From sequence record NC_049952.1: 48,763 nucleotides of DNA. One strand, given 5' to 3'. A program made the position numbers. Source of the stretch: Escherichia phage 2B8. Below are positions 32,801 through 38,800 of the stretch, one piece after another. Each line of letters starts with the position of its first letter. Within the stretch, counting starts at the first letter, position 1.

Positions 32801-35800
32801 CAGATCGGATGATTACGGTCCTTGCGGTAAATCCGGCATGTACAGGATTCATTGTCCTGCTCAAAGTCCATGCCATCAAACTGCTGGTTTTCATTGATGA
32901 TGCGGGACCAGCCATCAACGCCCACCACCGGAACAATGCCGTTCTGCTTATCAGGGAAGGCGTAAATTTCTTTCGTCCACGGATTAAGGCCGTACTGGTT
33001 GGCGACGATCAACAATGCGATGAACTGCGCATCGCTGGCATCACCTTTAAATGCCGTCTGGCGAAGAGTGGTGATCAGTTCCTGTGGGTCGACAGAATCC
33101 ATGCCGACACGTTCAGCCAGCTTCCCTGCCAGCGTTGCGAGTGCTGTACTCATCCGTTTTATACCTCTGAATCAATATCAAACTGGTGGTGAGCAATGGT
33201 TTCAACCATGTACCGGATGTGTTCTGCCATGCGCTCCTGAAACTCAACATCGTCATCAAACGCACGGGTAATGGCTTTTTTGCTGGCACCGCAGCGTTGC
33301 AAATGATCGATACAGAGTGATTCAAACAGGTGCTGTGGAAGACCTTTTTCCATGTCGTCTGCCAGTTCTGCCTCTTTCTCTTCACGGGCGATCTGCTGGT
33401 AGTGACGCGCCCAGCTCTGAGCCTCAAGACGATCCTGAATGTAATAAGCGTTCATGGCTGAACTCCTGAAAATGGCTGTGAAAATATCGCCCGCGAAATG
33501 CCAGGCTGATTAGGAAAACAGGAAAGGGGGTTAGTGAATGCTTTTGCTTGATCTCAGTTTCAGTATTAATATCCATTTTTTATAAGCGTCGACGGCCTCA
33601 CGAAACATCTTTTCATCGCCAATAAAAGTGGCGATAGTGAATTTAGTCTGGATAGCCATAATTGTTTGATCCATTTTTTGGGACTCCTGGCTGATTAAGT
33701 ATGTCGATAAGGCGTTTCCATCCGTCACGTAATTTACGGGTGATTCGTTCAAGTAAAGATTCGGAAGGGCAGCCAGCAACAGGCCACCCTGCAATGGCAT
33801 ATTGCATGGTGTGCTCCTTATTTATACATAACGAAAAACGCCTCGAGTGAAGCGTAATTGGTATGCGGTAACGCCGCGCTCAGGCGGCCTTGATAGTCAT
33901 ATCATCTGAATCAAATATTCCTGATGTATCGATATCGGTAATTCTTATTCCTTCACTACCATCCATTGGAGGCCATCCTTCCTGACCATTTCCATCATTC
34001 CAGTCGAACTCACACACAACACCATATGCATTTAAGTCGCTTGAAATTGCTATAAGCAGAGCATGTTGCGCCAGCATGATTAATACAGCATTTAATACAG
34101 AGCCGTGTTTATTGAGTCGGTATTCAGAGTCTGACCAGAAATTATTAATCTGGTGAAGTTTTTCCTCTGTCATTACGTCATGGTCAATTTCAATTTCTAT
34201 TGATGCTTTCCAGTCGTAATCAATGATGTATTTTTTGATGTTTGACATCTGTTCATATCCTCATAGATAAAAAATCGCCCTCACACTGGAGGGCAAAGAA
34301 GATTTCCAATAATCAGAACAAGTCGGCTCCTGTTTAGTTACGAGCGACATTGCTCCGTGTATTCACTCGTTGGAATGAATACACAGTGCAGTGTTTATTC
34401 TGTTATTTATACCAAAAATAAAGGCCACTATCAGGCAGCTTTGTTGTTCTGTTTACCAAGTTCTCTGGCAATCATTGCCGTCGTTCGTATTGCCCATTTA
34501 TCGACATATTTCCCATCCTCCATTACAGGGAACATTTCTTCAGGCTTAACCATGCATTCCGATTGCAGCTTGCATCCATTGCATCGTTTGAATTGTCCAC
34601 ACCATTGATTCTTATCAATAGTCGTAGTCATACGGATAGTCCTGGTATTGTTCCATCACATCCTGAGGATGATCTTCGAACTCTTCAAATTCTTCTTCCA
34701 TATCTCACCTCAAATAAGTGGTTTGCTGCCTAATTTCATTTTCTGGCGACCAACACAAGTCATCTTGCTGTCAGTTGTTTGGATTTCCGGTAGCCTGCCG
34801 CGTAAAGAGCTACGTTTGGAAGACAAGTTGAGCCTTCATATTTTCTGGTCAGCGTTGTCAGTGTTATTACTTCTGCTCTCATTGCTGGTTTGCGCTTGCA
34901 TTGCAAGACCACTCGTGAAGGGGTTGGCCTGTGTAGCTTGTCGGAGCTGATCGCCTTCTGACTTTGCAGATTTGCGCGACGAGCTCTACGGCGAGAAGCT
35001 GCGGTGCCTTTAAATTCTGTTTTTCTGGACATAGATTCCTCCCGAATAAACTTTGGCGATGCAATCTCGAAGCTCCTCCTGAGACGGTTGCTTCGGCATT
35101 GCATCCCACAGCTCATGTGGTTGGGTGATCTGGCTTTTCAGCCACGTAGTCGAGAGTTCGACGTTGTTTAAAGAGCCTGCCAGTCTGTTCCGTTTGGCTT
35201 CCAGCGTCCTACTGACGGTTAAATAGTACGATATGTACTTTATTTGGTCAATACGATTTGTTCTAAAATGAGGTGATTTTTTATAACACTTTGTATTTAA
35301 TAGTGTTGTTTTTTAGCGTGGGTGTATCGCCTCGGCGATGTAAGGAGAGATCAGAATTGCGTTGTTTAGTGAGTTGCACCTATTAATTTTAAAATAAATA
35401 CAATTGGTTATGTGTTTTTAGGTGGGGCGATCGTGAGGCAAAGAAAACCCGGCTCGGTGGCCGGGTTGATGGGATTATCGTTTATTTCTTTGATGTTTCT
35501 TTGCAGACTCAGCTTGAGTGTTTCCATACCTGCGTTTACCGCTATTGTTTTTTCCTCTAGGCTTGCCTTTTTTTCGATCTTCCCACCAGTCAGGTGCCGG
35601 GTCTGGCTCAACATGTAAAGCATCGGCAAGTCCTGATATCAAGCTGTATGACTGAACTCCATCAATGTGCTCTGACAGTGATGGGGTAACATTCTGTCTT
35701 AGTGGATCAAGAATAAAATCAATACCTTTAATTCTGGCGTGTTTGGCGGCAGGCACAAAGTCTGAGTCCCCAGCAACAAGGACAATTACATCAACAAGTT

Positions 35801-38800
35801 TTTCATAAGCTAAAGTCGTGATATCCATCCCTAGCTTGATATCAACTTGTTTTTGTTTGATGTCATAGTAAAAATCATCATTTGTCAGTTCATCCCATTT
35901 TTTCGTTCCTTTCATCAGAGCATCAAGGGAGAATGTAGTTAGTTGCCATCGCTTATTATCAACAAGATTCCCTAATCTTAAGGCCGTTTTTCGAGTTTTT
36001 CTTAACTCTTCATGCAGCTCCGTTCTCAGAATATATGATTTTTCGAGTTTGAAATTCTTGCGACCAGGCGTCTTATTGCCAGGCTCAGGAAGTGGAAGGC
36101 GTGTTTGAATGTCGAGTGGTGGACAGTCATAGAAGTAAATTCTATAAAGCTCAAGTGGTTCCCTACGTTCTTGTGATTGACGTTTTCCATTAAGATGGGA
36201 AAGAACCATTGACCATATTACTTTCATTATGCATTGCGCAGTCAGTTCATGCTCGGCGAAGTGTTTACGATGCGTAGCATGAACACGCTGCATGAAAAAA
36301 CCCGCATCAATTAAAATTGCTGCTTTCTTCATAAGAGTCCCAAAAAAATAGCCCAGAGCCGTTATGCAGATATTAACAATTGTCTGCGAACGGGGCTGGG
36401 CTTGGTTTAATTAATCTATGCCAAGTTGACTGTGCCGTCAACATAAAACTTACTTCCTATCACCCAAACGTCTCTTCTGGCCACTGGCTGGCGATAACTT
36501 TCCCCACAACGGAACAACTCTCATTGCATGGGATCATTGGATATTGCGGGTTTAGTGGCTGTAGAAACACCTGACCGCTATCCCTGATCAGTTTCTTGAA
36601 GGTAAACTCATCACCACCAAGTCTGGCTATGCAGAAATCACCTGGCTCAACAGCCTGCTCAGGGTCAACCAGAATTAACATCCCGTCAGGAAAACTAGGT
36701 TTGGAACCTGTTGGGGCGGTCATTGAGTTACCTTCAACCTCAAGCCAGAATGCAGAGTCACTGGCTTTTTTGGTTGTGCTTACCAATCTCTCCGCATCGC
36801 CTTTGGTAAAGGTTCTGAGTTCTGGAGAGAACATCCCAGCCTGAACATGAGAAAAAACAGGGTACTCATATTGTTTTTTAACTGGGGCCGATGAGTATTC
36901 GCCAACAGGTGAAAATGTCCCGTCGTGGTTGAATGATATGTTATCAATACCAAGGTATTTAAACACCACACCAATATCACTAAGAGATGGATGACGAGAT
37001 CCGCGCAACCAGTGTCCAATTCCACCCTGCGTCATACCTAGCTCTTCGGCTAACTTCTCTTGAGTTATGCCGAGCTCTTTCATTCTGGATCTAGCCAGTT
37101 CATACCATTTCATTTTCATGTCCTTATTATTACGCTCTGTATTGCAACCATCCATGCACAATGTGTATTTTTGCTTGCATTCAAAAAGTACATATTGTAT
37201 TTTTTCTTCATGGTTACTATGGAGGGCATATGAGCAACCTACGAAAATATCGAGAGTCACTGAATATCTCTCAAACAACACTTGCTAAGGCAGTTGGATG
37301 CACACAGGGAGCTATCGGACATTGGGAATCTGGTCGTCGCTTCCCAGACCTTAAAACATGCCGTGCTCTTGTTGCGTGTCTAAACAAGTTAGGCGCAAAA
37401 GTAAGTCTTGATGACGTGTTCCCGCCGGAGCACAAAGCCGCTTAATAAGCGGAGCCGCTCTTTGTAACAACGGACATTCGTCCTACGTCGCTGAAAAGCG
37501 AGCCCCAAGATATCTGACCAACTAAGGCCATATGCGTTTCCACGCATACCTTTCAACTAACTATTCACTATTGGAAATCTTAAGAAATGGAACAAACAAA
37601 TTACAGCAAACTATCACAGCGCGACGTTGATCGCGCAGAAACAGATTTACTTATCAACCTGTCAACGCTTACTCAGCGCGGTCTGGCAAAGATGATTGGC
37701 TGTCATGAATCGAAGATAAGCAGAACAGACTGGAGGTTTATAGCTTCGGTCTTGTGTGCTTTTGGCATGGCATCAGACATCAGTCCGATTAGCAGAGCTT
37801 TTAAGTATGCGCTTGATGAAATCACCAATAAAAAACGCCCGGCGGCAACCGAGCGTTCTGAACAAATCCAGATGGAATTCTGAGGTCATTACTGGATCTA
37901 TCAACAGGAGTCATTATGACAAATACAGCAAAAATACTCAACTTCGGCAGAGGTAACTTTGCCGGACAGGAGCGTAATGTGGCAGATCTCGATGATGGTT
38001 ACGCCAGACTATCAAATATGCTGCTTGAGGCTTATTCAGGCGCAGATCTGACCAAGCGACAGTTTAAAGTGCTGCTTGCCATTCTGCGTAAAACCTATGG
38101 GTGGAATAAACCAATGGACAGAATCACCGATTCTCAACTTAGCGAGATTACAAAGTTACCTGTCAAACGGTGCAATGAAGCCAAGTTAGAACTCGTCAGA
38201 ATGAATATTATCAAGCAGCAAGGCGGCATGTTTGGACCAAACAAAAACATCTCAGAATGGTGCATCCCTCAAAACGAGGGAAAATCCCCTAAAACGAGGG
38301 ATAAAACATCCCTCAAATTGGGGGATTGCTATCCCTCAAAACAGGGGGACACAAAAGACACTATTACAAAAGAAAAAAGAAAAGATTATTCGTCAGAGAA
38401 TTCTGGCGAATCCTCTGACCAGCCAGAAAACGACCTTTCTGTGGTGAAACCGGATGCTGCAATTCAGAGCGGCAGCAAGTGGGGGACAGCAGAAGACCTG
38501 ACCGCCGCAGAGTGGATGTTTGACATGGTGAAGACCATCGCGCCATCAGCCAGAAAACCGAATTTTGCTGGGTGGGCTAACGATATCCGCCTGATGCGTG
38601 AACGTGACGGACGTAACCATCGCGACATGTGTGTACTTTTCCGCTGGGCCTGCCAGGACAACTTCTGGTCCGGTAACGTGCTGAGTCCGGCCAAACTCCG
38701 CGACAAGTGGACCCAGCTCGAAATCAACCGTAACAAGCAACAGGCAGTCGTGACAGCCAGCAAACCAAAACTCGACCTGACAAACACAGACTGGATTTAC

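Follow-up and report, generated by a model that had tools for sequence, protein, structure and literature searches.

Escherichia phage 2B8 (sequence record NC_049952.1, analysed as one stretch of 48,763 nucleotides and referred to here as the window) carries, between its cI-type repressor gene and the gene for the N antiterminator, a gene for a 285-amino-acid (aa) protein with an NYN domain, preceded by a promoter-like site and a structured leader RNA. The three genes are co-oriented on the minus strand, with cI upstream of the NYN gene and N downstream. A first-pass annotation, made from the sequence alone, had placed a 285-aa gene co-oriented with cI between cI and pL, and our analysis confirmed this gene as an open reading frame (ORF) at 35475..36332 (minus strand). 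It had also described the locus as a plain single-gene module, a view that was not borne out because a conserved leader RNA with the form of a terminator lies between promoter and ATG. The features of the unit are as follows.

35472..36461, strand not assigned: exchangeable cassette of promoter, leader RNA and NYN gene, delimited by homology breakpoints relative to Stx2 phage 1717
36413..36441, minus strand: promoter-like site of the module, TTGACG-17-TAGATT, located by scan; the -10 element ends 10 nt before the hairpin
36350..36402, minus strand: three-tier leader hairpin of 53 nt (minimum free energy -24.0 kcal/mol), supported by covariation and by covariance model R1
36342..36349, minus strand: A plus U7 run directly 3' of the hairpin, an intrinsic-terminator tail by sequence and by the U-rich tails of homologous loci; the ATG lies 9 nt further on
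35475..36332, minus strand: predicted NYN-domain (PIN-like) nuclease gene, 285 aa, with a split core and a basic, low-confidence tail

The limits of the cassette were drawn from comparison with related phages. Stx2 phage 1717 has a cI gene 98% identical to that of the window, and homology between the two ends at 35471 and restarts at 36462; the intervening 990 bp of the window stand in place of a different segment of 1.3 kb. Phage ev099 has the cassette and the C-terminal half of cI in common with the window and differs in the N-terminal half of cI. Given these homology breaks and the sharing with ev099, the exchangeable unit is 35472..36461 (promoter, spacer and gene); promoter, leader RNA and NYN gene move as one cassette. 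In phage 1717 (locus L002, 2766-4087) the alternative occupant of the slot encodes an unrelated 173-aa protein without a Pfam match, which is widespread in Stx1 and Stx2 phages.

The NYN-type protein

The ORF begins with ATG and has 7035 homologues at E <= 1e-3, mostly of 250-290 aa, and is therefore not a chance ORF. An N-terminal LIDAGFF motif, a later VLVAGDSDFVPAAK motif and a basic C-terminal tail had been pointed out beforehand, and all are present as described (residues 7-13, residues 184-197, and 14 K or R among the 33 residues at the C-terminal end, respectively). The accompanying call of an NYN/PIN-like nuclease, made by pattern recognition, was upheld by profile search and fold comparison: Pfam NYN (PF01936, PIN-like clan) matched over residues 158-205 only, with 36.8 bits (gathering score 24.2; E = 6.8e-9), and NYN structures ranked top in Foldseek. 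NYN was the sole family returned by Pfam, with no homology to RexA or RexB, while NCBIfam TIGR00288 scored well under its cut-off and its PHROGs family is phrog_5783 ("unknown function").

In an alignment of 35 homologues, with identity down to 41%, six Asp residues are invariant (D9, D69, D164, D170, D189 and D191), including those of LIDAGFF and GDSDF (D9, D189 and D191) that had been singled out as conserved; R114-K115 and Q160-K161 are likewise invariant. These Asp residues are candidate catalytic residues of a putative metal site, with a putative equivalence to the catalytic Asp of MARF1. An AlphaFold model computed from the same alignment has a mean pLDDT (predicted local distance difference test) of 86.6 and a PIN-like alpha/beta/alpha fold, with values below 50 at residues 260-272 and 283-285 of the tail and averages of 44-52 over the last three 10-residue blocks. 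A PDB sequence search, with the single protein and with a 35-sequence profile, returned nothing meaningful, so that the protein is tied to solved NYN structures by fold comparison only. The NYN core is interrupted by an insertion of ~90 residues, and this split explains why the Pfam match is limited to residues 158-205. The closest known proteins are those with NYN domains (PF01936; MARF1 NYN 5YAA, VPA0982 2QIP, LabA-like/DUF88), from which the window protein differs in its core insertion, its basic disordered tail, its own leader RNA and the lack of a PDB sequence match.

Profile matches and the predicted fold thus confirm, at the level of sequence and model, that the gene encodes an NYN-type (PIN-like) nuclease. 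This domain identity is not new: in E. coli chromosomes and in phage ev099, the gene already carries the name "NYN domain-containing protein" from the Prokaryotic Genome Annotation Pipeline (PGAP). One record (NZ_CP148326.1, locus L172, 1536-2393) has DNA 100% identical to window positions 35440-36470, yet there PGAP annotates the 285-aa ORF, although it is intact, as an N-terminal pseudogene plus a 146-aa "NYN domain-containing protein". The full-length protein is hidden by this annotation artefact.

The fold also bears on whether the protein could instead be a DNA-acting FEN/5'-nuclease-like enzyme, or serve in the lytic cycle (for example in host mRNA decay) rather than as a lysogen-expressed RNase. 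One Pasteurellaceae-type contig has the module, in the same orientation, between Q and the lysis genes, a place that late transcription could read into. We nevertheless regard such a role as highly improbable: in Foldseek and profile searches the best matches were to NYN, far above those of FEN type, the gene in the window lies upstream of pL, points away from pR and stands outside the lytic operons, and the same module occurs on plasmids and on chromosomes without a phage.

The leader RNA

The spacer between cI and the NYN gene measures 128 nt and holds, in order, the promoter, the hairpin and the U7 run. The hairpin is built of three helices (P1 AGCCCAG/CUGGGCU, P2 CCGUU/AACGG and P3 GCAGA/UCUGC) closed by a 12-nt loop, CAAUUGUUAAUA. 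A stable hairpin (-24 kcal/mol) followed by A and U7 has, by sequence, the make-up of an intrinsic (Rho-independent) terminator, one that a simple terminator scan missed because its loop exceeds 8 nt. We rejected the hairpin as a mere terminator of cI, the promoter being upstream of the hairpin and the hairpin travelling with the NYN gene. Nor is it the terminator of an upstream gene more generally, since the upstream gene is divergent in Proteus (an ABC transporter), Edwardsiella (a holin) and Halomonas (Usp).

We assessed conservation of the structure in a sequence-only MAFFT alignment (A3) of 20 enterobacterial, pseudomonad and Pasteurellaceae-type leaders, using a structure of 17 pairs. 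Across this alignment 95% of cells are paired and 13 of the 17 pairs show compensatory (double) changes, values that none of 500 shuffles reached and that compare with 27-46% for slid controls. The structure belongs to the sense RNA, as G-U pairs outnumber A-C pairs by 13 to 0 and the model scores ~20-28 bits on the reverse strand compared with ~80. Loop bases U32, U33 and A34 are invariant. The covariance model R1 gave one strong match (58.8-83.5 bits) in 78 of 88 sources, directly upstream of the NYN ORF and on the same strand; in the window its sole strong match is at 36340..36406 (minus strand, 79.5 bits). Phage 1717, with its alternative cassette, gave no R1 match, and all other matches were at or below 28 bits. 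These results show a conserved RNA structure that is strictly linked to the NYN gene and to its strand.

Leaders of other phyla were treated as separate classes, because aligning all RNA classes jointly with MAFFT (A2) gave no consistent structure. A second model (R2), built from 22 leaders of other phyla with an AGUA...GA internal loop, also recovers the Proteus/Marinomonas-type and Bacteroidales variants. In the resulting 46-sequence alignment (A7), which leans towards structure because it was fitted to R2, 84% of cells are paired and 14 of 16 pairs covary. Homology between the leader classes would rest on position, size, an AGUAC remnant in Pseudomonas and the consensus of the apical loop.

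Neither the window between 34800 and 37700 (at E <= 1) nor the leaders of related loci (20 at the gathering threshold, 10 at E <= 1) matched any family in Rfam 15, and the searched literature held no paper tying NYN to such a leader motif. The conserved leader RNA is therefore a new result with respect to Rfam 15 and the papers searched. Complementarity between the apical loop and the mRNA start region, checked by eye, gave nothing convincing.

The leader variants differ in detail. Class I leaders (e.g. L058 2892-2960 and L084 2911-2977) have an internal loop of 5'-CAGUAM-3' opposite 5'-YGAN-3' between covarying helices, which resembles in sequence the sarcin-ricin/loop-E bulged-G motif. Bacteroidales-type leaders (e.g. 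L154, L163, L166 and L170) are 70-90 nt long; ahead of a conserved apical segment, UUGAUAAUGG, they contain an additional internal stem (GAAAGC...GCUU), and at these loci the predicted NYN start codon is offset. The Rhodanobacter/Dyella-type loci (L032-L054, L057, L061, L063, L068 and L081) combine a -10-like TAGAAT/TAAAAT with a short GC-rich hairpin (GCCGGC...GCCGGC), no U-run and a conserved CAUAAGGAUUUCCUAUG start region.

Neighbourhood and distribution of the module

The remaining features of the immunity region lie on either side of the cassette.

36460..37155, minus strand: cI-type repressor gene, HTH_3 plus Peptidase_S24, with an uncertain start codon (37155 or 37125)
35446..35467, minus strand: terminator-like hairpin past the NYN stop codon, located by scan, on the shared backbone outside the cassette (inside the segment shared with phage 1717)
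35223..35251, minus strand: pL-like promoter TTGACC-17-TACTAT, located by consensus scan
34760..35116, minus strand: N antiterminator gene (Pfam N_peptide, E = 4e-32)

In related records the repressor is annotated as LexA family or CI. Consensus promoter and terminator matches are no more numerous in this region than expected from shuffling, and the sites are therefore supported by conservation in related loci rather than by the scan; a TTGACN-17-TAnnTT element occupies the equivalent position in related phage loci with differing upstream genes. The first-pass annotation had credited the gene with its own promoter and a terminator before pL. Both sequences are present (36441..36413 and 35467..35446), and the promoter stood as its own, whereas the terminator belongs to the backbone and not to the cassette. 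The module promoter is overlapped, at its -35 hexamer and spacer, by a TTGAC-N4-9-GTCAA inverted repeat (36426..36441, minus strand); this repeat recurs at the equivalent place in L103, L107, L109, L120, L121, L131, L149 and L151 and is absent from some loci. Its arms vary jointly (TTGACG/CGTCAA or TTGACA/TGTCAA) with variable spacing. The repeat may serve as an operator or form an upstream hairpin.

The phage has a backbone of lambda/434 type, matches at ~97% identity covering 46-64% of its right half; lambda matches the backbone of the window and not the NYN segment, and the immunity region is shared with Stx phages. The cI-N slot, home of rexAB in lambda, had been described as a classic place for exclusion or abortive-infection genes, and it is a documented hotspot of abortive-infection genes, RexAB and BstA among them (PMC8585504).

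Relatives of the NYN protein are encoded in at least 591 species genomes and at least 557 viral contigs, of which we read ~80 each. The layout of promoter, hairpin, U-run and ATG is found in E. coli phages, an Edwardsiella prophage, a plasmid-like contig of P. aeruginosa and the Proteus chromosome, in most of the 80 species genomes read and in the viral contigs examined. Besides Gamma-, Beta- and Alphaproteobacteria, the groups with this layout comprise Acidobacteria, Bacteroidales, Elusimicrobia, Verrucomicrobia, Myxococcota, Rhodothermales and Thermaceae.

The module occupies diverse genomic contexts. On phage contigs it stands directly downstream of four different HTH_3+S24 (cI-type) repressors, and it is also found between Q/NinG and lysis genes. 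One end of a Halomonas prophage has the module convergent with an annotated phage integrase; a related P. syringae prophage has it at the corresponding end, adjoining an unannotated 382-aa gene. On Acinetobacter Rep3 plasmids and a KorA/KfrA element of P. aeruginosa the module adjoins toxin-antitoxin (TA) loci. No conserved protein partner adjoins it in the loci examined.

Among 5426 complete E. coli genomes, 74 have an intact module. A further ~200 E. coli genomes, mostly O157:H7, keep no more of it than promoter, leader and the initial 116-129 codons, within a decayed prophage; we considered these partial matches as a second variant and rejected this, as they are deletion remnants of the decayed O157:H7 prophage. 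The remnant (L171) sits beside proA and tRNA-Thr and is annotated "PIN domain-containing protein". In two Pseudomonas loci, C4 antisense RNA and its a1b1 targets (RF01695, RF03163) lie ~1.3-2.7 kb from the NYN gene (L016 5509-5708 and L076 2566-2762), which suggests P1/P7-type immunity regions nearby.

Possible functions of the RNA-nuclease module

The observations suggest a two-part module of RNA plus nuclease whose function is probably related to conflict, and the first-pass reading is on the whole partly supported. The interpretation that we favour, with a confidence a little above even, is a self-contained accessory (moron) cassette in which a structured 5' leader RNA and an NYN-fold, metal-dependent ribonuclease are under feedback control and used in genetic conflict. 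Transcription would begin at the cassette's own sigma-70-type promoter, a few nt before the 53-nt hairpin and U7 run. Most transcripts, together with read-through from cI/PRM, would stop at the U-run and yield an RNA of ~60-65 nt, while the smaller share that continues past it would give rise to the nuclease. That the NYN nuclease itself recognises the hairpin is probable, since the stems covary, the loop bases are invariant and the RNA accompanies the family across phyla. Binding of the nuclease could stabilise the terminator, or cleavage of the RNA as a substrate could destabilise the mRNA, and either route would keep a potentially toxic RNase at a low, buffered level. The leader would also insulate the NYN gene from cI read-through, and the unit is probably uncoupled from PRM read-through. 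The most likely use of the nuclease in a lysogen would be in genetic conflict, through exclusion or abortive infection of other phages or through addiction, and a putative defence role is plausible.

Feedback of this kind has parallels among ribonucleases. The 5' untranslated regions of E. coli rnc and rne are autoregulatory leaders of ribonucleases, and Regnase-1, an NYN/PIN-like RNase, cleaves a stem-loop in its own mRNA. Like these, the module has a conserved stem-loop in the nuclease's own transcript, a possible recognition site for negative feedback; unlike them, the window element is a 5' terminator hairpin conserved across phyla, and its binding or cleavage by the protein is putative. 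RexAB of lambda and BstA-aba of BTP1 share the position of the module in the cI-N slot, downstream of cI and co-oriented with it, and the 5' end of BstA likewise bears a short non-coding element (PMC8585504). However, the NYN gene is unrelated to either in sequence or fold, the module also occurs outside phages, and the aba element works as DNA whereas the window leader shows strand-specific covariation of RNA type.

Several observations weigh against a feedback-controlled conflict cassette. In about 25 of the 80 genome loci, most of them from Rhodanobacter and Dyella, the leader hairpin is of another, shorter kind and lacks a U-run, so that terminator function is not universal, and model R2, built on the other classes, fails to detect the enterobacterial RNA class. 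The NYN gene is apparently a stable chromosomal gene adjoining glmS in Proteus (140 blocks of the collection), and apparently also in the many Rhodanobacteraceae species that carry it; such members would suit a role in housekeeping or stress no less than one in conflict. In PADLOC-DB v2 the protein has no significant full-length match, the weak matches being to HEC-09 (E = 2e-4) and to the LabA-like NYN PDLC01154 (E = 1.4e-3), each over ~45 residues of the GDSDF region only, and the searched literature holds no report of anti-phage activity for the NYN gene. HEC-09, another NYN candidate, gave no protection against the phages tested (bioRxiv 10.1101/2024.01.29.577857), and the DefensePredictor tables list no DS name for NYND, a 215-aa candidate from E. 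coli that was apparently not validated; neither is known to be a member of the present family. HEC-09, which is Hma-embedded, resembles the window gene as an NYN-domain candidate defence gene with a weak profile match (residues 155-200), and differs in having an N-terminal HTH-like domain, another context and a different family. As a separate candidate for the NYN gene we considered DS-3 of DefensePredictor, a "split PIN" single-protein system, and rejected it because the published sequence (WP_022645725.1, 340 aa) is unrelated.

The stable chromosomal sites and the results for HEC-09 and NYND would suit an ordinary nuclease of RNA metabolism or stress, carried as cargo without an anti-phage role, in which case the hairpin would be a leaky terminator or insulator and 5' stabiliser that keeps expression low; a 5'-terminal hairpin with a U-run suffices as insulation from cI or Q read-through. 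We consider this unlikely, given that the loop and internal-loop bases are invariant while the stems covary, which a plain terminator does not need, and given that the module is found repeatedly on plasmids and in the moron slots of prophages and that the cassette swaps with other genes of the slot.

The gene order also invites comparison with type III TA systems (toxIN, cptIN and tenpIN), small autonomous modules that phages and plasmids carry and that act in abortive infection. The window module matches their order of promoter, structured non-coding RNA, intrinsic terminator and endoribonuclease gene. In a type III-like TA or abortive-infection system, the terminated hairpin RNA would inhibit the NYN RNase in trans, and depletion of the RNA, through phage shut-off or loss of the element, would free the nuclease. 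Strict co-inheritance of RNA and protein across phyla, a presence both on plasmids and in the moron slots of prophages, with other TA loci adjoining, and the lack of a conserved protein partner beside the module are all consistent with this. However, tandem repeats are the defining trait of known type III antitoxins, and none occur between 35300 and 36600, where a single hairpin doubles as terminator; the toxin fold is NYN rather than ToxN/AbiQ-like; antitoxins are usually labile, whereas this hairpin is stable; and the searched literature contained no paper linking NYN to type III TA. With antitoxin activity putative, we hold this mechanism to be possible, though doubtful. The wider proposal of a new RNA-protein class of TA or abortive-infection systems in many phyla, in which a single terminator-derived small RNA neutralises the NYN RNase or is sensed by it, is a tentative one that we would sooner doubt than adopt. 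Under this proposal, the sarcin-ricin/loop-E-like AGUA...GA internal loop of some variants could mimic the RNA that the nuclease targets in the cell.

Most genes of the lambdoid cI-N slot are of unknown function, and one recurrent occupant is here described as an NYN nuclease with a leader RNA. The leader is a candidate RNA family for curation. If it is true that the RNA controls or neutralises the nuclease, RNA-based toxin control would extend to NYN/PIN-like nucleases.

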